DNA of 40,074 nucleotides from Patescibacteria group bacterium (GTDB lineage Bacteria; Patescibacteriota; Microgenomatia; Levybacterales; UBA12049): assembly GCA_038061125.1 (NCBI GenBank), contig JBBTZX010000034.1, positions 1 through 40,074 of the forward strand, read 5' to 3'. Shown here piece by piece: positions 11,311 through 28,472 of this stretch. Every line of letters begins with the position of its first letter. Position 1 is the stretch's first letter. The notes beneath the pieces were generated by a model, which did no database searches, was not told the DNA's origin, and saw only the letters and a list, made by a program, of their open reading frames with translations. The position numbers and the translations under genes are program-made.

Positions 11311-12351
11311 ATGAAAATTCTCATAACGGGAGGAGCTGGTTTTTTAGGCTTACACCTTGCTTCATTTTTTTCCAAGAAGAATCATAAGCTAATATCATTA
11401 GATGTTCAGAAGTTTGACAAAAGTGAATATGCAAAAGATTTTAGAACAGAAATTTGCGATATTAGAAACAAAAGAAAACTTAATAGCTTAATCAGAGATC
11501 AAGATATTGTTATTCATGCGGCTGCAGCTCTCCCGCTTTGGAAGGAAAAGGATATTTATACTACAAATATCGATGGAACAAGAAATATTTTAGAATTGGC
11601 AAAAAAACACAAAGTAAAAAGAGTTATCTATATCTCATCAACTGCTGTTTATGGTATTCCCAAAAAACATCCTATTCTCGAAAAAGATCCAAGAGTTGGG
11701 GTAGGAGCTTATGGTAAAACGAAAATTTTAGCAGAAGATCTTTGTTTTCAGGCCATTAAGGAAGGATTGAATGTTACGATTATCCGACCAAAAACTTTTG
11801 TTGGTACAGGGCGTTTAGGAGTTTTTGAGATTCTTTTTGATTGGATTCACGATGGTAAAAAAATCCCGGTGTTAGGAAATGGTAACAATAGATATCAATT
11901 ATTAGATGTTGATGATCTCGTTAAGGCAATATATACATTTTGTTTAGAAGACGAAAAGTCTTACAATGACGTTTTTAATATAGGAGCAGAGAACTTTGGT
12001 ACTGTAAGAAATGACTTGCAGGAAGTTTTTGATGTGGATAATTCAGGATCAAGGATTTTTCCAACTCCAGCTTTTTTTCTAAAAAAAGCATTATGGTTTT
12101 TTGAAAAAATTGGAGTGTCCCCTTTATATCAATGGGTATATGATACTGCTGATAAAGATTCATTTGTTTCAATAGAAAAAATTAAAAAAACTTTAAAATG
12201 GAAACCTGAATATTCCAACTCTCAAGCTCTTATTAAATCTTATCGTTGGTATCTTAAAAATTATAAAGAGATAAAATCTAAGACGTCAGGCGTTACGCAT
12301 ACGGTTGGTTGGAAACAAGGAGTGCTTAAGTTATTTAAGTATTTCGCATAA
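11311..12351 (+). CDS. NAD-dependent epimerase/dehydratase (extended SDR)
   Basis: ILITGGAGFLGLHL Rossmann motif, YGKTK catalytic YxxxK, 346 aa. Confidence 0.8.
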   Translation: MKILITGGAGFLGLHLASFFSKKNHKLISLDVQKFDKSEYAKDFRTEICDIRNKRKLNSLIRDQDIVIHAAAALPLWKEKDIYTTNIDGTRNILELAKKHKVKRVIYISSTAVYGIPKKHPILEKDPRVGVGAYGKTKILAEDLCFQAIKEGLNVTIIRPKTFVGTGRLGVFEILFDWIHDGKKIPVLGNGNNRYQLLDVDDLVKAIYTFCLEDEKSYNDVFNIGAENFGTVRNDLQEVFDVDNSGSRIFPTPAFFLKKALWFFEKIGVSPLYQWVYDTADKDSFVSIEKIKKTLKWKPEYSNSQALIKSYRWYLKNYKEIKSKTSGVTHTVGWKQGVLKLFKYFA

Positions 12352-20062: not shown

Positions 20063-21745
20063 ATGCCTACGGATTTTATTAAGAGGAGTCTTCGGATTTT
20101 GCTTTCCCGCCAAACAAATATTTTGTCTGCGGCGATTGTAATTATGGCAACGATTATTTTTTCCCAGCTTTTGGGATTAGTTCGCCAAAGACTCCTGGTT
20201 AGTATTTTTGGAGCGTCTGACACATTGGGAGTTTATCTTGCTTCGTCTCGTCTTCCAGATTTTCTCTTCCAATTAACTATTGCAGGAGCTTTATCATCGG
20301 CATTCATACCAATCTTTTCCAATTATCTGGAAAAAGGTAAGGAAAAAGATGCTTATAGAGTTGGATCAACATTTCTTATGCTAAGTTCAGTTATTTTTTT
20401 ATTTTTGTCAATAATCCTTTTTATTTTTTCAAAAGAATTATCAAGGCTTATAGCTCCTGGTTTTTCCAAAGAGCAGATAGAGCTTATGGCAGGTCTTATG
20501 AGAATAATAATAGCAGGAGAGTTTTTATTCATAATTGGGAGCTTTTTATCTGCAGTTCTTCAATCTTATAATCATTTTTTCATTCCGGGAATTGCCGCTG
20601 CACTTTATAATTTGGGAATTATCATTGGGATTGTTTTATTGTCGCCGGTTTTGGGCATATATTCTGCAGCATTCGGAGTTATTCTAGGCGCCTTTATCTT
20701 TATCTTGGTTCAATTGCCGCAAATTAAAGCAGTCGGGTTTTCTTTTATCCCGTCCTTCTCTATAAAAACAAGCGGAGTTTTGGATATCTTTAAGCTTATG
20801 TGGCCAAGAACAATTTCCATAGGGGTTTTTCAATTGGGAACAATTGCCACAGTGACCCTTGTTTCTTTTCTGCAGTCCCCAGGCAGGAGCTATGTAATTT
20901 TTGATTACGCGCAAACTTTAGCCTTTGCTCCCGTTGTTCTTTTCGGTCAGGCCATAGCACAGGCCGCTTTCCCGATATTATCAAGAGAAAAAGATAAATT
21001 AGAAGATTTTAAGGTAACTTTTCTAACAAGTTTTAATCAAATAATTTATTTAATCATGCCTGTTTCTGTTTTATTTTTGGTATTAAGAATTCCGGTTGTA
21101 AGATTAATATATGGAGCAGCACAATTTGATTGGCAGGCGACTGTACTTACAGGCAGGACTCTTGCTTTTTTTAGCATTTCTCTTTTTGCCCAAGCCCTTG
21201 TTTATCTAATCTCAAGAGGGTTTTATGCCTTGCATGACACAAAACCCCCTTTGATTATCGGAGCAATAACTACAATCCTTATGATTGGCTTGGGTGCACT
21301 ATCCATATTGGTATATCATCAAGGGATAGAAAGCATAGCGATTGCATATTCTATCGCCAGCATTGTTAATTTTTTGGCGCTTTTTATAATTTTGGATATA
21401 AAAGTTGGCAGTTTTCAAAAATTTACTTTAGCATTATCTCTAATGAAAATTTCCATCGCGACAATTTTTATGGGAATAGCACTTTATGTGCCGATAAAAC
21501 TTTTAGACCAATTGGTTTTTGATACTACGAAGACAATTAACCTTTTGTTACTTACGGGCATATCGAGCGTCATAGGTATCGGGATATATCTTTTTCTGAC
21601 ATGGCTTTTAAACGTGAAGGAAGCATTTACTTTCCTTCTTATTTTTAGAAAAATCGGAAACCTGCCTCGCGGCAAGGCGGGTTGGAAAGAAATTTTAGGA
21701 AAATCCGAAGAAGTTATAGACGGTACGCAAATAAATAAAATTTAG
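20063..21745 (+). CDS. murJ: Lipid II flippase MurJ/MviN
   Basis: 560 aa, about 14 TM helices. N-terminal GLVRQRLLVSIFGASDTLGVYLASSRLPDFLFQL is typical of MurJ. Confidence 0.85.
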   Translation: MPTDFIKRSLRILLSRQTNILSAAIVIMATIIFSQLLGLVRQRLLVSIFGASDTLGVYLASSRLPDFLFQLTIAGALSSAFIPIFSNYLEKGKEKDAYRVGSTFLMLSSVIFLFLSIILFIFSKELSRLIAPGFSKEQIELMAGLMRIIIAGEFLFIIGSFLSAVLQSYNHFFIPGIAAALYNLGIIIGIVLLSPVLGIYSAAFGVILGAFIFILVQLPQIKAVGFSFIPSFSIKTSGVLDIFKLMWPRTISIGVFQLGTIATVTLVSFLQSPGRSYVIFDYAQTLAFAPVVLFGQAIAQAAFPILSREKDKLEDFKVTFLTSFNQIIYLIMPVSVLFLVLRIPVVRLIYGAAQFDWQATVLTGRTLAFFSISLFAQALVYLISRGFYALHDTKPPLIIGAITTILMIGLGALSILVYHQGIESIAIAYSIASIVNFLALFIILDIKVGSFQKFTLALSLMKISIATIFMGIALYVPIKLLDQLVFDTTKTINLLLLTGISSVIGIGIYLFLTWLLNVKEAFTFLLIFRKIGNLPRGKAGWKEILGKSEEVIDGTQINKI

Positions 21746-22043
21746 TCCTCAAAAATAAAATAATTTTCAAAAAAGATTGATAAATTAGTATAATCAAAAA
21801 ATAAATCTCGATAAAATTCCCCAAACCCAAATTATTTTTCATTCCCAATTTGACAAGAAAATAAAAGAAAATAACCTGTAATTCCGGACATTTTTTCATC
21901 TTTATCTACTAAAATAGGCTATATATTTAGCCTCAAAAACCTAAAACACATGATAAAAAATGAAAAGATAGGTTTTATAAGGGTTGTTATTAACTGATTT
22001 AGACCAAAAAATCAAAATCTCTTGGGGGCAAATAAGATTGTAA

Positions 22044-22080
22044 ATGTCATTATATGTCATTAAACGTCTGAAAATGTCAT
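22044..22080 (+). promoter_or_regulatory. Three phased ATGTCAT sites (candidate operator/iterons)
   Basis: ATGTCAT at 22044-22050, 22054-22060 and 22074-22080, so the spacing is 10 and 20 bp. Each site is a near-palindrome (ATGnCAT). Confidence 0.3.
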
Positions 22081-22130
22081 ATTAGCTAGCTATTAATGAT
22101 ATCCATGGTATTAAGGGGCTTTTTTGGGGC

Positions 22131-22158
22131 TTGACATTTCTGGAATAAGTGCTATACT
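22131..22158 (+). promoter_or_regulatory. Promoter of the 22201 gene
   Basis: TTGACA (22131-22136), 16-nt spacer, TGCTATACT extended -10 (22150-22158). Overlapped by the GGGGCTT x2 direct repeat (22115-22121, 22126-22132). Confidence 0.5.
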
Positions 22159-22200
22159 TCTAATACTTAAATAATACTTAAAGTTTTTAAGTTTGGTTTT

Positions 22201-22971
22201 ATGAATTCTTTAAAAGAAGTAAAAAATTTAAGAAAAAGAAATAGAAGCTCGAGATATCCATCTCTTTCGCTAGAATATGCGGTAAAGGTTATTGAAGAAG
22301 CTAGGAAATTTGGAAAAAACGTGACGAGCGCGAATTTGGGCGGTACAGGCGCAAAGAGCGGAGCTTACATACGTAAGAAAGCTTCATTAGGGTATTATGG
22401 TTTATTATCTGGAACAGGCGACAATCTTCAAATAACCGATCTGGCAGATAAAATTGTTTATGCAAAAAGCGAGGAAGAAAAAGCAAACTCACTGAGACAA
22501 GCGTTTCTTTCCCCCGATCTTTTTTCTACGATATGCCAAAAGATTGAAAAAAATACTCCTATTAATCTCGAAGTATTAGGGAATGTTTTTATTAGAGATT
22601 ATGGAATTCAGCCTTCTGCGAAAAAGGCTTTACTCCAAAATTTCGTGAGTTCTGGGATCTTTGCCAATGTGATTAAGTATAGCGGTGAAAACAAAAGAGA
22701 TATTATTTTTTCAGACAATGATAAAGGTAAGGAGGAAAAGACCTCTGTTATAATGTCGCAGCAAGACAATGAAGCTTCTCGGGGAATATCGGGAAATTAT
22801 ACTATTGATCTTCCATCCGGAATAATAATTTCATTTCCAGCAGATATGAAATTTAATGTTAGTGTGGGAGAATTTGCACAACCGATTAGGGATCTGGAAA
22901 AAATAGCATCAAGTTTAAAAGAAAAAAAACAAAAACATGGGGAGCATATCCAAGCGGACGAAGGTAAGTAG
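22201..22971 (+). CDS. Hypothetical protein, possibly with an N-terminal winged-helix-like domain
   Basis: 256-aa ORF. No motif I can name with confidence. First gene of the accessory islet. Confidence 0.35.
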   Translation: MNSLKEVKNLRKRNRSSRYPSLSLEYAVKVIEEARKFGKNVTSANLGGTGAKSGAYIRKKASLGYYGLLSGTGDNLQITDLADKIVYAKSEEEKANSLRQAFLSPDLFSTICQKIEKNTPINLEVLGNVFIRDYGIQPSAKKALLQNFVSSGIFANVIKYSGENKRDIIFSDNDKGKEEKTSVIMSQQDNEASRGISGNYTIDLPSGIIISFPADMKFNVSVGEFAQPIRDLEKIASSLKEKKQKHGEHIQADEGK

Positions 22972-23016
22972 CTTCCAAAACTACTACACATACGGATATA
23001 GCATATTTTTATGTGT

Positions 23017-23047
23017 TCCATCGCAAGTTCAAATCTTGCTCTCTCCA
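23017..23047 (+). pseudogene. tRNA 3'-end relic (T-arm plus acceptor 3' strand), not an intact tRNA
   Basis: GCAAG-TTCAAAT-CTTGC (perfect 5-bp T-stem with a canonical T-loop), then TCTCTCC plus the discriminator A. No complementary GGAGAGA 5' strand within 90 nt upstream. Confidence 0.5.
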
Positions 23048-23067
23048 GTACTAAACGACTTAAGATA

Positions 23068-23097
23068 TTGACCGATTGGCACGAAATGTGTTAAAAT
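23068..23097 (+). promoter_or_regulatory. Orphan promoter upstream of a short terminated transcript
   Basis: TTGACC (23068-23073), 18-nt spacer, TGtTAAAAT extended -10 (23089-23097). Confidence 0.4.
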
Positions 23098-23103
23098 ACT
23101 TAA

Positions 23104-23150
23104 ACACATAAGAATATGCTAGCAAAAACACCTCCTCTGGGAGGTTTTTT
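23104..23150 (+). ncRNA. Candidate ~45-nt small RNA (promoter to terminator, no ORF)
   Basis: The predicted TSS is about 23104. The transcript would end at the hairpin CCTCC-tctg-GGAGG plus T6. No coding potential. Confidence 0.25.
23131..23150. terminator. Intrinsic terminator, probably bidirectional (also serves the convergent methyltransferase gene)
   Basis: CCTCC (23131-23135) pairs with GGAGG (23140-23144), followed by TTTTTT. On the minus strand the hairpin is followed by tgttttt. Confidence 0.6.
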
Positions 23151-23207
23151 GTTGAGAGATTCCTGTCGTATATTCGTAATACGAAAAGAGTAGTTGGATA
23201 TAAACCG

Positions 23208-24713
23208 TCAGTCAAATATAGATAAGTTATCTTCGTTAATTTTTACCCTGTCTGCTTTCTTTCTGTAATCTAACTGGAGGGGGATTGAAGGTTTTTTCGC
23301 ATTTTCCAGAATATCTTTAATTGTTAATATTTGAATTTTGGGAATGCCTGTTTTATAAAATCCAGATTGTATTGCTTCTTCGGTCATGTTTCTTGTAGGT
23401 TCTTCTAGGGTAAGGAAAATTCCTACTAGAGCCTTCTCTTTTTCTACAACAGCTTTTAATTCCCTAATATCTTTTGCTTGAACCTTTCCGCTTTTTACTT
23501 GCACTATGGCTTTTTGATATTCTTTGGGTTTATCTGAATCCATAAAATAAATATATCCATCTATTCCGGTATCTGCTCCTTTTTTCTTGTCTGCCCAAGG
23601 TCTGGCGTTTACTAGGGATAAAGCCCAATACTGAAAATCATATCTATCTTGTCTTTGAGCAAGTTCTATTGCTCCTTGTAAGTCTTCGGGTTCTCCGATA
23701 ACATCGTAATTTTTTCTTTGTTCAAGTCCATATTCATTTTTTAATCGGTACTTCATTAAGTTAATTGCTAAATGAGTAATATCTATGCCAAGCCATGTAA
23801 GATGATAGTCTTCTTTCTGTTTTAAATATTCACAAGCGGATAGGGTAGTGCCGCATCCACAAAAAGGATCTAAAACAATTCCGTTTTTTGGACAGGATGC
23901 TTTTATTATTCTTTCAAGTAATTTACGAGGTTTTTGCGTGTTATATCCAAGTCTCTCGGTTTTGTCTCTTTCTGGGATTTGGGGTACTATCCAAACATCA
24001 TTTGGATTTCTTGGTTCGTCTAGGTAATATTTATAAACTTTTCCTGCTTTCCTTACTTCCCTATACCTTCTTCCGTCTGGATCGGTTCCAAAATATCCGC
24101 CAAAAGTGCCTTCGTTTTGTTCTCTTAAATCTCCAACAGCTTTCCCGTCATAAAAATAGCTTTCGGTCTTGTTATAAACAAGAAGAATATCGTGTCTTTT
24201 GCTAAAAGCAGTTCTGCCTATACTTCCGCTATTCCTAACCCAGACAATCTCATTCATAAAGTTTTTTACTCCAAAAATTGTATCCATAACTACTTTTAAG
24301 TAATGAGAAGCTGTCGGATCGCAGTGAAGATATAGAGTGCCCGTAGATTTCAAAACTCTATGCAACTCTAGTAATCTAATTGTCATCATGGTTAAGTAAG
24401 CCATTACATCGTTTTGCTTAATAAACTTTCTAAAAGCTAAAATCATGTCTACAGCCTCCGAAGGAGCATTGTCAACAATTTCTTTGAATGCTCGTTCCGA
24501 TTCTTCTGTCCAATGCCAAGTGTCATCAAATGCTTCAATTTGGGCTTTTGATTTGTCTCCAGTTAGTTCTTCGAATAGGACATTATAAGAAGCTTTAGAA
24601 TTGAAAGGCGGATCTAAGTAAATTAAGTCAATAGAATTATCAGCGATATGGTTTTTAAGTATCCGAAGGTTATCTCCAAAAAATAGGGTAGACCTGTTAA
24701 TGCCCATACTCAT
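23208..24713 (-). CDS. Beta-class N6-adenine/N4-cytosine DNA methyltransferase fused to a C-terminal Mrr-like (PD-(D/E)xK) nuclease domain
   Basis: 501 aa. DPPF (motif IV) precedes DPFCGCGTT (motif I), which is the beta permutation. The C-terminal ~140 aa carry GADTGIDGYIYF ... VQVKSGK, matching the Mrr_cat pattern (GDGGIDG ... QCK). Confidence 0.8.
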   Translation of the reverse strand: MSMGINRSTLFFGDNLRILKNHIADNSIDLIYLDPPFNSKASYNVLFEELTGDKSKAQIEAFDDTWHWTEESERAFKEIVDNAPSEAVDMILAFRKFIKQNDVMAYLTMMTIRLLELHRVLKSTGTLYLHCDPTASHYLKVVMDTIFGVKNFMNEIVWVRNSGSIGRTAFSKRHDILLVYNKTESYFYDGKAVGDLREQNEGTFGGYFGTDPDGRRYREVRKAGKVYKYYLDEPRNPNDVWIVPQIPERDKTERLGYNTQKPRKLLERIIKASCPKNGIVLDPFCGCGTTLSACEYLKQKEDYHLTWLGIDITHLAINLMKYRLKNEYGLEQRKNYDVIGEPEDLQGAIELAQRQDRYDFQYWALSLVNARPWADKKKGADTGIDGYIYFMDSDKPKEYQKAIVQVKSGKVQAKDIRELKAVVEKEKALVGIFLTLEEPTRNMTEEAIQSGFYKTGIPKIQILTIKDILENAKKPSIPLQLDYRKKADRVKINEDNLSIFD

Positions 24714-24720
24714 TTTATGC

Positions 24721-24736
24721 TACTTATAGTCCCAAT
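24721..24736. promoter_or_regulatory. C-box-like site 1 (TACTTATAGTCCCAAT)
   Basis: One mismatch to the GACTnnnAGTC C-box core. Shares AGTCCCAAT with site 2. Lies 8 nt upstream of the methyltransferase start. Confidence 0.3.
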
Positions 24737-24776
24737 ATAGCACATTTTAATAAATAAATGCTACAAGGAGAAGCTG

Positions 24777-24792
24777 GTCTGTCAGTCCCAAT
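24777..24792. promoter_or_regulatory. C-box-like site 2 (GTCTGTCAGTCCCAAT)
   Basis: One mismatch to GACTnnnAGTC. About 23 nt upstream of the HTH gene ATG at 24815. Confidence 0.3.
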
Positions 24793-24814
24793 TAGCTTAA
24801 TCTTTGGGGTAGTT

Positions 24815-25036
24815 ATGGATGTTGTATCGGTTATCCATAAAAGGTTAGGGCAGAGAATTTATCAGTTAAGGAAAGAAAGGGAAATGACTCAAGAAGATTT
24901 AGCTTTTAAGGTTGGTGTTGATAGAAGCTATATGGGTTTTGTAGAAAGGGGAGAGAAAAATGCTACCGTTAAAATTCTTGCCAAAATAGCATTTGCTCTT
25001 AAAGTTTCTCTATCCGAACTTTTCCGCTCGGTTTAG
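24815..25036 (+). CDS. XRE-family HTH regulator, controller (C) protein-like
   Basis: Start moved to ATG 24815 (MDVVSVIHKRLGQRIYQLRKEREMTQEDLAFKVGVDRSYMGFVERGEKN). 73 aa, divergent from the methyltransferase. Size and position are typical of R-M controller proteins. Confidence 0.7.
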   Translation: MDVVSVIHKRLGQRIYQLRKEREMTQEDLAFKVGVDRSYMGFVERGEKNATVKILAKIAFALKVSLSELFRSV

Positions 25037-25059
25037 ATAATTTATTCTGCTTCACGTTT

Positions 25060-25076
25060 TTCTGCTATAATCTTCA
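25060..25076 (+). promoter_or_regulatory. Promoter module TTCTGCTATAATCTTCA, copy A (upstream of 25111)
   Basis: TGCTATAAT is a consensus extended -10. A GAAGG Shine-Dalgarno sequence (25094-25098) lies 12 nt before the ATG at 25111. Confidence 0.55.
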
Positions 25077-25110
25077 CAAATCTATTGTATTCTTCTTCAC
25101 GAAGGCAATT

Positions 25111-25848
25111 ATGAAACCTACATTAAATAGTTTACTTAAGGATCAAAATAGAAATATTAAAGTTTTTCTAAAGAGTCTACCTACTGAAAAGAAAATTATA
25201 AATAGGATAATAAGCTTATATTTTAATTTTCATAAATCCTTCAATAAGAAGATCCCAAGGGAGAGAATACCTGAGCTTCATCTTTTTTGGATCACTCTTA
25301 GAGGATTTTTTATAAGTATAGAATTAATGTTACAAGGGCATGTATCGGAATCGTATTCAATTGTTAGTACATCAGTGGAAGCTGCTGGTTATGTATTTAA
25401 AATCTGCAAAAATCCTTCAAAATCAATAGTTTGGATAAAGAAAAAAGATTATAGCTACAGAGAATTTAAATCAAAATTTGGTGAACCTTTTCCTCGGGAG
25501 TTCTTTAAGCGATTTCCAGAACTATCTCAATTATATGATATTTACAATTTAACTAGAGATTATGGTATTCATTCAAACTTAGAAAAGACAATTTTCTTCA
25601 AGAAAAAGGATGAAAAGAATTCAAATGAATACGCTTTTAAATTCAGCGAGTTAGACAATTTTCCATTAGTGCAATCAAACCTAAATTATTTAATTCACGC
25701 AAATATAAAAATATTAAAGATATTTAAAATTTGTTTTGAAGATATGTTAGACAAAAAATGGAAGTCAAAATTAACACACGTAGAAAAAACCTTCGACAAA
25801 CATAGATCCTCAATCCCAAGTATGCTGAATGCGTTAGGTTATAAATAA
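25111..25848 (+). CDS. Hypothetical helical protein with an Rx4H motif (HEPN-like candidate, or a novel restriction/effector subunit)
   Basis: 245 aa. LTRDYGIHSN contains R-D-x3-H, matching the HEPN R[NDHQ]xxxH signature. It occupies the position of the R gene in a C-R operon. No PD-(D/E)xK motif is recognisable by eye. Confidence 0.3.
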   Translation: MKPTLNSLLKDQNRNIKVFLKSLPTEKKIINRIISLYFNFHKSFNKKIPRERIPELHLFWITLRGFFISIELMLQGHVSESYSIVSTSVEAAGYVFKICKNPSKSIVWIKKKDYSYREFKSKFGEPFPREFFKRFPELSQLYDIYNLTRDYGIHSNLEKTIFFKKKDEKNSNEYAFKFSELDNFPLVQSNLNYLIHANIKILKIFKICFEDMLDKKWKSKLTHVEKTFDKHRSSIPSMLNALGYK

Positions 25849-25855
25849 TTAATGC

Positions 25856-25872
25856 TTCTGCTATAATTTTCA
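25856..25872 (+). promoter_or_regulatory. Promoter module TTCTGCTATAATTTTCA, copy B (orphan)
   Basis: 16 of 17 nt identical to copies A and C. An ATG at 25876 follows the -10 box by 8 nt. Confidence 0.45.
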
Positions 25873-25875
25873 GAG

Positions 25876-25968
25876 ATGAGTTTGACCTTTGACTCCGCCA
25901 GGTACCAGTCGGTACCTGACTTTACTCAGGGTAAATCAGTGGGGATATTTGGAATAAAACTTCAGTAA
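25876..25968 (+). other. 30-codon sORF or short transcript containing a GC-rich perfect hairpin
   Basis: MSLTFDSARYQSVPDFTQGKSVGIFGIKLQ. CAGGTACC (25899-25906) pairs with GGTACCTG (25911-25918). The transcript runs head-on toward the 3' end of the PIN gene. Confidence 0.2.
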
Positions 25969-25973
25969 AACTT

Positions 25974-26375
25974 TTAGTCTTTCAATAGTTTTAAAAAATC
26001 TTTTGGTGAGAGGATTTTCGTTTTATTATATTGCTTGAGTTTTAGCACGAGTTTGTCTCCGCTTATTAAATAATCTGCCTGAGCTTCACCAGCAAGCTCC
26101 AAAAGAAAATTGTCAGTTGGGTCTTTGCATATAAGAATCTTTTTTTTAGGAATATATTTTTCTGTTTTTGTTTCTAACGCTTCTTCGACAGTTTGAAGAG
26201 TATATATAGAAATCAAAAATTTTCCTTGTAACTTATTAAGAATTTCTGCTTTTAGTTCTGGAGATAAGCAAAATATATATTTTTTGTTAAGCCATGCTTC
26301 GATTACTTTTTGAGGATTTCCGCCAAACAGAACGCCGGAAATAAATACATTCGTATCTACAACGATCTTATGCAT
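25974..26375 (-). CDS. PIN-domain toxin (type II TA system)
   Basis: 133 aa. An N-terminal VVDTNVFISG acidic motif and a later ISGD. 8-nt overlap with the upstream antitoxin gene. Confidence 0.75.
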   Translation of the reverse strand: MHKIVVDTNVFISGVLFGGNPQKVIEAWLNKKYIFCLSPELKAEILNKLQGKFLISIYTLQTVEEALETKTEKYIPKKKILICKDPTDNFLLELAGEAQADYLISGDKLVLKLKQYNKTKILSPKDFLKLLKD

Positions 26376-26661
26376 TTTTTATGATTGAGTAAGCATCCTT
26401 TTCGGAGCGGGGAGCTTTTATTGATTTCTTTTGAAGATATTTCTTAAAGGATTTTTTTCCTTCACTGAAAATTTCCTGGAACTTGAGTTCAAAAAGCTGA
26501 TTCATTTCTTCCTCCTGTTTTTTTATCTCACTATAAGGATAAATAACTACAGAAGGAGAACTATCTTGCACTATAACGATAGGTTGTCTTGTTGTTTTCA
26601 CCTTCTGAACAAGTTTGCCTAAATTGTTTCTTGCATCAGTAACGCTTACTATCTGTAACAT
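26368..26661 (-). CDS. Phd/YefM-family antitoxin
   Basis: 97 aa. VSVTDARNNLGKLVQKV...QPIVIVQDSSPSVVIYPYSE matches the Phd/YefM N-terminal fold pattern. Confidence 0.75.
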   Translation of the reverse strand: MLQIVSVTDARNNLGKLVQKVKTTRQPIVIVQDSSPSVVIYPYSEIKKQEEEMNQLFELKFQEIFSEGKKSFKKYLQKKSIKAPRSEKDAYSIIKNA

Positions 26662-26670
26662 ACATAGTAC

Positions 26671-26699
26671 ATTATATAGTACTTGTCACTGTCTGTCAA
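26671..26699 (-). promoter_or_regulatory. Consensus promoter of the TA operon with embedded ATAGTAC x2 repeat (putative leaderless mRNA)
   Basis: Minus strand: TTGACA (26699-26694), 17 nt, TATAAT (26676-26671), 9 nt, ATG (26661). ATAGTAC occurs at 26664-26670 and 26676-26682. Confidence 0.6.
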
Positions 26700-26722
26700 G
26701 GGGAACTTTGCCGTGTTCCAAT

Positions 26723-26739
26723 TTCTGCTATAATCTTCA
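26723..26739 (+). promoter_or_regulatory. Promoter module TTCTGCTATAATCTTCA, copy C (lepA)
   Basis: TGCTATAAT, with the lepA ATG 10 nt after the -10 box. Confidence 0.55.
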
Positions 26740-26744
26740 GGATC

Positions 26745-28472
26745 ATGAACAATCAAAATAACATCAGGAATTTTGCCATCATCGCCCATGTGGATCACGG
26801 CAAATCAACTCTTGCAGACAGGTTTTTGGAAATTACAAATACGATTCCCAAAGAAAAAATGCGGGAACAGTTTTTAGACCAAAATCCAATCAGTAGGGAA
26901 AGAGGAATTACAATAAAACTAGCCCCGGTTAGAATGAACTACACGCTAAACGCTATTAACTATACGTTAAATTTAATTGATACTCCGGGGCATGTAGATT
27001 TTTCTTATGAGGTGTCTCGTACTTTGGCTGCATGCGAAGGCGCGATACTGCTGATAGATGCTACGCAAGGAATTCAAGCACAAACCGTAGCCCATTTAAA
27101 TTCTGCAAGAGAAGAAAAACTAACGATAATTCCGGTTATAAATAAGATAGATTTGGATATCGCCAAGCCCGAAGAAGTGGCAGTTGCACTAATCGAAAAA
27201 TTTGGATTTACAAAAGACGAAATAATTTATATTTCCGCAAAAACAGGCAAAAATGTCGAGGATCTTCTTAAAGCTGTAATTGCAAGAATCCCAGCCCCGC
27301 AAGGATTGGATTCTCCTTTAAAAGCTCTCATTTTTGATGCTTTTTATGATGAGTATAAAGGAGTAATCGTTTATGTAAAGATAAGGGATGGAAAAGTTAA
27401 AAAGACCGATAGAATAAAATTTCTGCAAAGTAGCGCAGAAGGAGAAGTTACGGAAGTTGGATATTTTTCTCCATTTCTTGCAGCCAAAAACGAATTAACA
27501 ACAGGAGAAATAGGCTATATTATCACAGGGGTTAAAGACATTCGGCTTGCTCGAGTCGGAGATACTATAGCTTTTGCCAATCACCAAACTTTACCATTAC
27601 CTGGCTACAGACAATCAAAACCCTTAGTGTTTTTCGGTGTATATCCGAAAGCCTCAAATGAATTGGTTCACCTTAAAGAGTCTCTTAATGCCTTGGCATT
27701 AAATGATACGTCCTTAACAATTGCGGAGGAACATTCGGCCTTTTTAGGATCGGGTTTCAGGGTGGGATTTTTGGGATTACTGCATGCGGAAATAGTCAAA
27801 GAAAGACTAAAAAAAGAGAAAGAAATTGATGCAATTTTTACAACACCATCGGTTTTATATAAAAAGGAAAAAGAAACAATGTTTGAACCATACATAAGAT
27901 TAACAGTATATTCGCCAAATGAGTATGTGGGACAGATAATAACTGTATGTCAAAATAAAAAAGGAGAGCTTGTAGATATGTCCTATCAGGGTAATAATGT
28001 TATTTTTACCTATAATATGCCATACAGTATGCTTATCCGCGGACTTTCGTCAGAGATTAAAACCGCATCGTCGGGATTTGCCAGCATAGATTATACGCTT
28101 ACTGATTATAGACAAGCAGATCTTGTTAATCTTGAAATACGAGTCAATGATGTTTCAATAGATGTTCTATCGGAATTTGTCTATAGAGATGAAATAAATA
28201 TAGAGGCAAGAAAAAAAGTAGAGAAATTAAAAAATTCATTGCCAAAGCAGCAATTTAGACAGATTATTCAGGCCGTTGCCGACTCAAGAATATTAGCCAA
28301 AGAAGAGATAGCACCTTTTAGGAAAGACGTTTTAGCCAAAATGTCTGGAGGAGATAGAGGGCGAAAAGATAAGCTTTTGGATAAACAAAAGAAAGGCAAA
28401 AAGCGTCTTATGTCGCAAGCAAAAATTACTATTCCACAGGAAGCATTGCTTTCTTTAATAGGAAATAGTTAA
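26745..28472 (+). CDS. lepA: Translation elongation factor 4 (LepA)
   Basis: IRNFAIIAHVDHGKSTLADR G1 motif, DTPGHVDF, NKID, and a LepA-type C-terminal domain. 575 aa. Confidence 0.9.
   Translation: MNNQNNIRNFAIIAHVDHGKSTLADRFLEITNTIPKEKMREQFLDQNPISRERGITIKLAPVRMNYTLNAINYTLNLIDTPGHVDFSYEVSRTLAACEGAILLIDATQGIQAQTVAHLNSAREEKLTIIPVINKIDLDIAKPEEVAVALIEKFGFTKDEIIYISAKTGKNVEDLLKAVIARIPAPQGLDSPLKALIFDAFYDEYKGVIVYVKIRDGKVKKTDRIKFLQSSAEGEVTEVGYFSPFLAAKNELTTGEIGYIITGVKDIRLARVGDTIAFANHQTLPLPGYRQSKPLVFFGVYPKASNELVHLKESLNALALNDTSLTIAEEHSAFLGSGFRVGFLGLLHAEIVKERLKKEKEIDAIFTTPSVLYKKEKETMFEPYIRLTVYSPNEYVGQIITVCQNKKGELVDMSYQGNNVIFTYNMPYSMLIRGLSSEIKTASSGFASIDYTLTDYRQADLVNLEIRVNDVSIDVLSEFVYRDEINIEARKKVEKLKNSLPKQQFRQIIQAVADSRILAKEEIAPFRKDVLAKMSGGDRGRKDKLLDKQKKGKKRLMSQAKITIPQEALLSLIGNS
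26937..26978. repeat. Diverged 21-nt tandem duplication inside lepA (NYTLNAI / NYTLNLI)
   Basis: aactacacgctaaacgctatt / aactatacgttaaatttaatt, 15 of 21 identical. Lies just before DTPGH. Confidence 0.7.

Follow-up and report, generated by a model that had tools for sequence, protein, structure and literature searches.

The composite islands of the staphylococcal cassette chromosome (SCC and SCCmec) are built by serial insertion at rlmH/orfX and include pseudo-SCC units that lack a recombinase. Here we describe a comparable stack of small units in a Patescibacteria group bacterium, located in the 5-kb interval between murJ and lepA and referred to as the islet. The window, i.e. the whole stretch of 40,074 nucleotides that was analysed, is contig C34 of the source genome (G000), an 819-kb assembly that is 85% complete. 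In common with SCC elements, the islet consists of serial units at the end of one housekeeping gene which are joined by short direct repeats, and it carries restriction-modification (R-M) and toxin-antitoxin cargo; as in some SCC units, a large serine recombinase is missing and would need to be supplied in trans. It differs from them in its target, which is the 5′ start and promoter of lepA (elsewhere of ychF) instead of a 3′ end, in its joint repeat, which is itself a promoter re-driving the displaced gene, and in the very small size of its cassettes of about 0.8 kb. Furthermore, no recombinase was found in G000.

Integrons and clusters of attC sites lacking integrases (CALINs) likewise contain co-oriented cassettes of one or two genes, a conserved short repeat and frequent toxin-antitoxin cargo. 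In contrast to attC, the islet repeat is not an imperfect palindrome, and promoters are supplied by every islet cassette but lacking in most integron cassettes. General family assignment revealed no intI among the islet open reading frames (ORFs), and no intI-specific search was made. Type II R-M systems with a control (C) protein, such as PvuII, Esp1396I and AhdI (PMC3488213, PMC2175313), share with the islet the divergent methylase (M) and C genes, a small HTH_3 protein and a C-box-like sequence with TAT spacer beside the methylase start; in Esp1396I, C also represses M. The adjacent methyltransferase gene of such a system is also present. However, no recognisable endonuclease gene is co-transcribed downstream of the helix-turn-helix (HTH) gene, the next gene lies on a separate cassette, and in intact relatives the HTH gene heads the operon of a mobile element. 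Finally, the PIN/Phd pair of the islet resembles VapBC-like type II pairs with Phd/YefM antitoxin in its overlapping upstream antitoxin gene and its strong promoter, and it passes the Pfam and NCBIfam models. The pair itself is ordinary; what is unusual is its packaging in a mobile cassette with a second, outward-facing promoter.

The 5 kb are best explained as a mosaic at the lepA start in which debris of mobile elements is stacked with small cassettes that each have a promoter of their own, and not as one defence system. We assign a probability of about 0.72 to this reading. From the murJ side, the old murJ-lepA spacer with a scrap of the lepA start and half a joint module would be followed by unk256, a gene ending in a tRNA-like scar. 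Further to the right would come the block of methylase-nuclease gene and divergent Xre-type regulator gene, then the unk245 cassette and then the PIN/Phd cassette. These pieces would have accumulated at the lepA start, presumably a recurrent insertion site in the family. The unk245 and PIN/Phd cassettes each appear to begin or end at TTCTGCTATAAT(C/T)TTCA, an extended −10 promoter, and the last copy of this module would now drive lepA. Insertion may have occurred by site-specific recombination at the promoter/first-codon region and, as the islet encodes no recombinase, a large serine recombinase acting in trans would be the likely agent. Under control of the HTH protein, the methylase may protect the element and the host DNA, while the PIN/Phd pair may stabilise the patch. 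The unk245 protein would be carried as element cargo and may have a role in conflicts with phages or elements.

The 17-nt sequence GCTATAAT[CT]TTCA occurs at three sites in the 819-kb assembly (25064, 25860 and 26727), all of which are located in the islet and on the plus strand. The corresponding module copies were designated A, B and C (see table). Unit boundaries are thus marked by three co-oriented direct repeats, and homology ends at them. Copy A lies 10–20 nt past the end of homology (25037–25051) to L072, L073 and G002, the former two being metagenome contigs and the latter a genome of the same genus. Contig L109, which carries a 92% identical unk245 gene, aligns with the window from the TTCTGCTATAAT of copy A to about 20 nt past copy B; its upstream sequence is unrelated. 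As far as these alignments reach, the homology breakpoints were shown to coincide with the modules. The truncated module at the left border of the islet matches the upstream half of a composite module present on contig C84 of G000, in genus g63 and in G192. Its extended motif was found here and four times on contig C84, and nowhere else in the genome. A search for the composite module in 194 genomes of the family gave 7 forward, 0 reverse and 0 control matches, all confined to G000 and genus g63. Moreover, small genes (among them NYN and toxin-antitoxin-like ones) are arrayed with the same joints upstream of ychF in G000 (C84), G165 and G159. In these arrays, the module often has an upstream TAAAATTCCCCAAACCC box, which starts at the stop codon of the gene before, and is followed by an ATG 6–7 nt past the −10 element.

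Comparison of the murJ-lepA junction between genomes revealed that the site is repeatedly occupied by different DNA. The order pilO-pilN-rpsT-murJ-lepA-surface protein is kept in most of the same-family genomes examined. G001, which belongs to the same genus, has an empty site with 14 nt between the murJ stop codon and the lepA ATG. Another insert of 3.2 kb was found in G002. It contains genes for a MazF-like toxin and its partner and for a secreted protein with an Excalibur domain, besides two more small genes; the HTH gene is present next to lepA as a copy with 85% identity. G008 carries a 1.2-kb insert with a MazE-like/PIN pair. The first-pass annotation had called the islet accessory, and this synteny comparison bears it out: the locus was shown to be accessory and strain-variable. 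In two other genera, the junction contains a purN-like formyltransferase gene (G021; L042 11163–11861) and a gene for a 424-aa protein with a faint, sub-threshold GalT-like match (E 0.0095; G009; L040 1373–2647). The presence of metabolic genes points to a general insertion hot spot and not to a dedicated defence island. The content of the hot spot is often, but not always, of toxin-antitoxin or defence type.

The insertions appear to have left traces of the displaced target. On the murJ side of the G008 insert, the lepA promoter and the first ~25 codons are present once more (62 nt, 79% identity, E 6e-9), in which the peptide ITNFAIIAHVDHDKSTLA is still readable. In the window, the region from 21746 to about 21790 aligns with the G001 spacer and the first lepA codons, the blastn match reaching 21786 and thereby passing the lepA ATG of G001. 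The displaced duplicate of the target-gene end is clear in G008; in the window it amounts to ~40 degenerate nt. With the old lepA start left at the murJ side, the present lepA start and its promoter would have arrived with the inserted DNA.

The PIN/Phd cassette links the lepA site to a second one. Both proteins score well above the model cut-offs (PIN_3, 67.2 bits versus 27; PhdYeFM, 40.8 versus 29.8 bits), and the antitoxin gene, which is upstream, overlaps the toxin gene by 8 nt. The cassette was found in about 12 genomes of other genera with 65–79% DNA identity, and the TTGTCAAG box of its promoter is kept in all of ten cassette homologues. In G161 and G192, from two other genera, it is positioned directly upstream of ychF between TGCTATAAT modules on both sides, and the homology extends through module copy C. 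These comparisons show that the toxin-antitoxin cassette moves between lepA-proximal and ychF-proximal sites. In both genomes an orphan copy equivalent to copy B abuts the PIN stop codon, there without the palindrome that is located between unk245 and PIN in the window. Copy B points antisense into the PIN/Phd operon, and since both genomes share this orphan arrangement, antisense transcription of the operon is possible. In the window, the ATG after copy B opens a 30-codon ORF (25876–25968) that contains the CAGGTACC-AGTC-GGTACCTG palindrome.

Table. Position of genes, joints and other sequence features in and beside the murJ-lepA islet
Feature	Position	Strand	Remarks
murJ, lipid II flippase	20063-21745	+	Left core flank; Pfam MurJ 1.2e-69; 92-96% identity in two congeners
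Putative decayed ancestral murJ-lepA spacer with displaced old lepA start	21746-21790	+	Weak, AT-rich similarity
Truncated joint module	21808-21845	+	TCGATAAAATTCCCCAAACCC...TTCCCAATTT, without -10 half; left border of islet
Three ATGTCAT repeats	22044-22080	+	Upstream of unk256 promoter; starts at 22044, 22054 and 22074, spacing 10 and 20 bp
Promoter-like site of unk256	22131-22158	+	TTGACA-16-TATACT with TG; 11/12 matches, consensus only
unk256	22201-22971	+	256 aa; probable tandem winged-helix DNA-binding protein
tRNA-like element	22940-23047	+	108 nt; overlaps 3' end of unk256; sub-threshold
Bidirectional intrinsic terminator (predicted)	23130-23155		6-bp G+C-rich stem, T runs on both strands; between convergent unk256 and methyltransferase genes
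DNA methyltransferase	23208-24713	-	501 aa; predicted beta-class N6/N4 enzyme with C-terminal Mrr-type (PD-QxK) nuclease-fold domain
Divergent regulatory region	24714-24814		Operator-like boxes ATGCTACTTATAGTCCCAAT and ...CAGTCCCAAT; between methyltransferase and HTH genes
Xre/C-protein-like HTH regulator	24815-25036	+	73 aa; long ORF from 24758
Module copy A	25056-25076	+	TTTTTCTGCTATAATCTTCAC; left edge of unk245 cassette
unk245	25111-25848	+	245 aa; all-helical; sparse family with distant DUF5677 link
Module copy B	25852-25872	+	After unk245 stop codon; points at PIN 3' end; only a 30-codon ORF follows
Perfect 8-bp palindrome	25899-25918		CAGGTACC-AGTC-GGTACCTG; between unk245 and PIN; unique in genome
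PIN-domain toxin	25974-26375	-	PIN_3 2.9e-18; TIGR00305 1.3e-18
Phd/YefM-type antitoxin	26368-26661	-	PhdYeFM 1.9e-10; TIGR01552 1.5e-11
Toxin-antitoxin operon promoter	26671-26699	-	TTGACA-17-TATAAT; 12/12 consensus
Module copy C	26719-26739	+	lepA promoter at present (TGCTATAAT with a 10-nt gap before ATG)
lepA (EF4)	26745-28472	+	Right core flank, insertion target; GTP_EFTU 1.4e-53; LepA_C 1.1e-30

Several observations weigh against the stack of cassettes as we describe it. No recombinase is encoded in the islet and PF07508 had no match anywhere in the 85%-complete assembly, while the link to serine recombinases is indirect, running via L072, L073, L064 and L058. The modules are missing from 7 of 10 homologues of the toxin-antitoxin cassette, and the small ORF ahead of the modules is not recognisable as a recombinase tail. 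The remnant of the lepA start in the window is short (~40 nt), AT-rich and degenerate. Moreover, TGCTATAAT is also a plain extended −10 promoter with 35 sites genome-wide, most of them without the flanks.

With 35 such sites in the genome, the repeat pattern could partly reflect promoter convergence or homologous recombination between promoters. In its full form this explanation holds that the repeats are independent copies of the consensus strong promoter of the lineage and that the islet has grown by illegitimate or homologous recombination without any dedicated cassette mechanism. The general promoter form of TGCTATAAT, the ATG that follows many modules 6–7 nt later, as expected of leaderless mRNAs, and the missing recombinase all agree with it. 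Against it, the surroundings of the −10 element are conserved as well: the flanks AATTYTGCTATAATCTTY and the upstream AAAATTCCCCAAACCC box occur in the arrays only and not at other promoters. In addition, modules of 43–44 nt agree at ~40/44 positions across genera in which LepA is only about 65% identical, and homology breaks at the module edge. We consider independent promoter copies unlikely. A stack of inserted cassettes remains our preferred explanation, and a more far-reaching version of it can be put forward tentatively, although as a whole it is rather doubtful. Here, TTCTGCTATAAT(C/T)TTCA, often with the AAAATTCCCCAAACCC box, would be the attachment site of a Patescibacteria system that inserts tiny promoter-carrying cassettes directly ahead of the translational GTPase genes lepA and ychF or within their first codons. 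The cassettes would bring replacement promoters for the displaced genes, would be mobilised in trans by large serine recombinases of related elements and would have a DUF5677-like protein as recurrent conflict cargo.

Further observations were made on the modules and their surroundings. A second small-gene array in G000 (C84:20500–25600, L105) is located directly upstream of ychF (C84:24358). Its genes code for proteins of 173, 173, 117, 222 and 171 aa, the last being homologous to the NYN-domain cassette gene of G161, and they are divided by TAAAATTCCCCAAACC / TGCTATAAT joint modules. An ORF of 82–84 aa (MPKLSKKRKEEIMKQFGG...) without family match is 82–90% identical in three genera (G000 C84:5229–5468, L102:1489–1737 and L107:4222–4476). 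It ends exactly where a joint module begins, and its last codons (KSR*) are recognisable at 21805–21816 of the window. The idea that the 82-aa ORF preceding the module is the severed tail of a serine recombinase was discarded, as no similarity to recombinase tails was found. In G002 (L033 14072–14215) the module after the HTH gene is split, with TTTTTCTGCTATA and TATAATCTTCA being ~135 bp apart. The spacer holds an 11-nt inverted repeat (GCAATCATTTT / AAAATGATTGC) and may represent a miniature insertion. Many cassette genes (window, C84, L101 and L106–L108) have their start codon 6–10 nt past the −10 box, which fits a common expression of the cassettes from leaderless mRNAs.

The 5-kb interval contains six credible genes, and its G+C content is not distinct from the surroundings. 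The ORFs are placed as originally described, and profile matches confirmed the methyltransferase-nuclease fusion, the C-protein-like HTH and the PIN/Phd pair. The first-pass annotation had interpreted this gene set as a defence island. Accessory status and genes of conflict type speak for that view, but no complete system was recognised, and the mosaic consists of independently acquired pieces. A defence island was expected to hold at least two recognised complete systems, and PADLOC found none that was complete in the islet. Its matches were limited to the MTase_II/MTase_III models and Control_protein; no restriction endonuclease or other system was found, and the toxin-antitoxin pair and both uncharacterised proteins had no PADLOC match. 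The latter two, unk256 and unk245, were also without any match above threshold in Pfam, NCBIfam or PHROGs. An Rfam scan of 21500–27000 gave nothing above threshold. Promoter-like matches were not enriched in the region (14 versus 20.4 expected from shuffles).

The unk245 protein belongs to a sparse family. A word-indexed search returned a single relative, the 92% identical protein of L109, while exhaustive HMMER searches found 67 representatives at E ≤ 1e-3. Among 46 aligned relatives, H154 is invariant, E90 and E/D80 are each present in 43, R86 in 36 and H77 in 33. The clade of the window protein has Ser in place of the common Arg86 and has also lost Arg75 of the family. The AlphaFold model is all-helical and confident (predicted local distance difference test score, pLDDT, 93.5; predicted template-modelling score, pTM, 0.90), and Foldseek searches against PDB and the viral models of BFVD gave nothing at E < 0.09. 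Eight of the 46 relatives matched DUF5677 (PF18928) at E ≤ 0.01, with a best E of 4e-6. The window protein had no DUF5677 match at E ≤ 10 and stays below the Pfam gathering cut-off, so that the two seem related only distantly and transitively. DUF5677 proteins and unk245 are of similar size and both associated with serine recombinases (PMC12632615).

A HEPN-like assignment of unk245, proposed on account of an Rx4H motif, did not hold. The motif is present in the window protein but not conserved, R149 being found in only 5 of the 46 relatives and replaced by Ser in 25. None of the 46 matched a HEPN family of Pfam, and the best HEPN structure, Csm6 (6tug_B; E 0.23, template-modelling scores 0.32/0.21), was not a convincing fold match. 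HEPN was therefore rejected. The neighbourhood of the family was examined at 14 loci comprising 141 neighbour proteins within 6 kb. The commonest families were Resolvase (5), Recombinase (4) and Zn_ribbon_recom (3), and other neighbours included type I and II R-M genes, AAA_21 and PIF1 helicases. At four loci (L058, L064, L085 and L089) a large serine recombinase was encoded no more than 6 kb from the unk245 homologue. The neighbourhood of the family is positive for mobile elements, recombinases being commonest, and includes R-M genes at some loci. We regard unk245 as probable mobile-element cargo, neither a HEPN protein nor a plausible restriction enzyme.

One could still imagine an anti-phage or abortive-infection effector of an undescribed, stand-alone kind in unk245 and perhaps in unk256, which would make the islet functionally a defence island though a piecemeal one. 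The sporadic distribution of the unk245 family (4 of the 245 genomes from the order, 9 of the 401 in a phylum-wide sample) fits this idea, as does its travelling with serine-recombinase elements, type I/II R-M genes and AbiEii-like ATPases. The invariant His and the conserved Glu/Arg are suggestive of an active site. According to a preprint, DUF5677 is enriched beside serine recombinases and was chosen as a defence candidate by an independent pipeline, but the DUF5677 gene tested was not among the five ORFs reported as protective (PMC12632615). The loss of Arg86 and Arg75 in the window clade and the missing PADLOC matches of unk245 and unk256 speak against an effector role as well, and so do the visible neighbours of unk256 homologues, which are housekeeping or signalling genes. 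The status of mobile-element cargo fits many non-defence roles. We consider a stand-alone effector quite improbable.

Like the cassettes, the methyltransferase-HTH block can be traced to other DNA. The methyltransferase matches N6_N4_Mtase (PF01555; 2.5e-41), Mrr_cat (3.9e-9) and NA-iREase1 (2.5e-9). DPPF (residues 34–37) precedes FCGCGTT (283–289), an order that together with the profile match identifies it as a predicted beta-class N6A/N4C DNA methyltransferase. In the nuclease-fold domain, D382, D386 (GIDG) and Q405-V-K407 are conserved in 120 homologues. The domain is thereby assigned a putative Mrr-type PD-(D/E)xK motif, although it also matches the 'inactive' NA-iREase1 model. The fusion is common, with at least 8000 homologues at E < 1e-30 and both domains in nearly all of the top 120, which come from many phyla. 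Literature searches for a methylase-Mrr fusion gave nothing pertinent. On contig C105 of G000, 126 nt (11459–11584) match part of the methyltransferase gene at 74% identity; a second, related methylase gene therefore exists in this genome.

Methyltransferases with 90–91% identity are encoded on L072 and L073 within serine-recombinase elements. The DNA of the window is 83–84% identical to both from 23210 to 25046 (1.84 kb), the similarity ending at both block edges. In these elements a 73-aa HTH gene is divergent from the methylase gene as in the window. It is followed by an unrelated gene for a protein of 494–544 aa, DUF5659, several small genes, HTH_17 (excisionase type) and Resolvase+Recombinase; PHROGs and Pfam gave no useful match for the element genes beside the methylase. 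G002 shares only 24706–25051 with the window. This comparison shows that the methylase-HTH block derives from a mobile element of the serine-recombinase type.

The HTH protein matches HTH_3 (2.5e-13), and its best PADLOC matches are R-M control-protein models (Control_protein, 2.9e-16). Homologues in G002, L072 and L073 are 73–75 aa long and start at the equivalent of M20, which places the true start at ATG 24815. The divergent control region of ~100 nt is near-invariant in the four loci (88% mean column identity over 146 aligned nt versus 84% in the coding block) and holds ATGCTACYTATAGTCCCAAT and a second ...AGTCCCA box. Located 9 nt from the methylase start, ACTTATAGTC matches one GACT(N3)AGTC C-box (consensus in PMC3488213) at 7 of 8 positions with the consensus TAT spacer, and occurs twice in the genome when both strands are counted. 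The C-box-like tACTTATAGTC is located at 24721–24731 with one C/T change among the four loci, and a second box was not recognisable. We read the HTH protein as a regulator of the divergent promoters, which may be labelled either a C protein or the Cro/CI-type switch of the element. A working C-protein type II system (M <- -> C-R), in which unk245 would be a new restriction endonuclease licensed by the HTH protein and the toxin-antitoxin pair and unk256 would be bystanders, has the M(-), C(+), X(+) order of PvuII/Esp1396I, the control-protein match, the C-box and the well-conserved regulatory region in its favour, but is highly improbable given the confident all-alpha fold of unk245 without nuclease motif or nuclease fold match, an HTH-X or M-X pairing conserved at 0 of 14 homologue loci, the unrelated genes that follow HTH in L072/L073 (in G002 there is nothing before lepA), the homology break and separate promoter module between HTH and unk245, and the recognition of only one of two C-box pairs.

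Twelve homologues of unk256 were found; within the order, 5 of 245 genomes have the gene. Its AlphaFold model has a mean pLDDT of 58. Residues from about 20 to 170 (mostly 70–89, with dips of 55–66) form two helix/hairpin units with weak fold matches of MarR type only (E ≥ 0.04), and we predict a probable tandem winged-helix DNA-binding protein. The strong promoter and the upstream repeats ascribed to this gene were both recovered, the promoter as a consensus match only. No comparable repeats were present upstream of two unk256 homologues. A Rep-type initiator with iterons was considered in view of the winged helices, the ATGTCAT repeats and an AT-rich tract, and dropped because these two homologues lack the repeats and no Rep profile or fold match was found. 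The visible neighbours of the homologues (partly judged by eye) lend no support to the suggested defence association of unk256. What had been described as an orphan promoter-terminator unit downstream of the gene turned out to be the bidirectional terminator of two convergent genes plus a promoter-like match.

The supposed 3′-end relic of a tRNA proved to be a near full-length, 108-nt tRNA-like element. It has a perfect T arm, an acceptor stem of 6–7 bp, a D arm and an extra insertion of 33 nt, and covers positions 1–71 of the Rfam tRNA model with 22.6 bits, below the gathering score of 29. ARAGORN found no tRNA in the window at default settings and detected the element only at a lowered threshold (-ps80). 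No similar tRNA is present in G000, the 25-nt T-arm/acceptor portion is absent from 193 other genomes of the family at up to 2 mismatches, and no tRNA was found beside unk256 homologues. An attachment (att) site of a resident tRNA is thus not supported. Large serine recombinase ORFs at L058 (13800–13960), L085 and L089 end in tails such as GWDSNPR, GGDSNSR and RVDSNHEP, and in L085 a tRNA gene is located ~200 nt downstream of the recombinase. Such tails are what the antisense strand of a tRNA T arm typically encodes. This suggests attachment sites overlapping the 3′ end of the recombinase gene itself. With recombinase genes in L058, L085 and L089 having tRNA-encoded tails or adjacent tRNAs, a foreign att scar would be a reasonable explanation for the element in the window.

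For annotation, these results imply that the region should not be labelled a defence operon. The methylase and HTH genes would be a mobile-element fragment, and the gene in the R position would belong to a separate cassette. The unk245 family, which is structurally confident yet unmatched and travels with serine-recombinase elements, is a reasonable candidate for functional testing. Literature searches on integration at lepA yielded no pertinent report. For the biology of the Candidate Phyla Radiation, the lepA start would be a site of accumulation of foreign mini-cassettes in the absence of a local recombinase. One and the same toxin-antitoxin cassette can precede either of two GTPase genes, lepA or ychF, and the joint would double as the promoter of the essential downstream gene.

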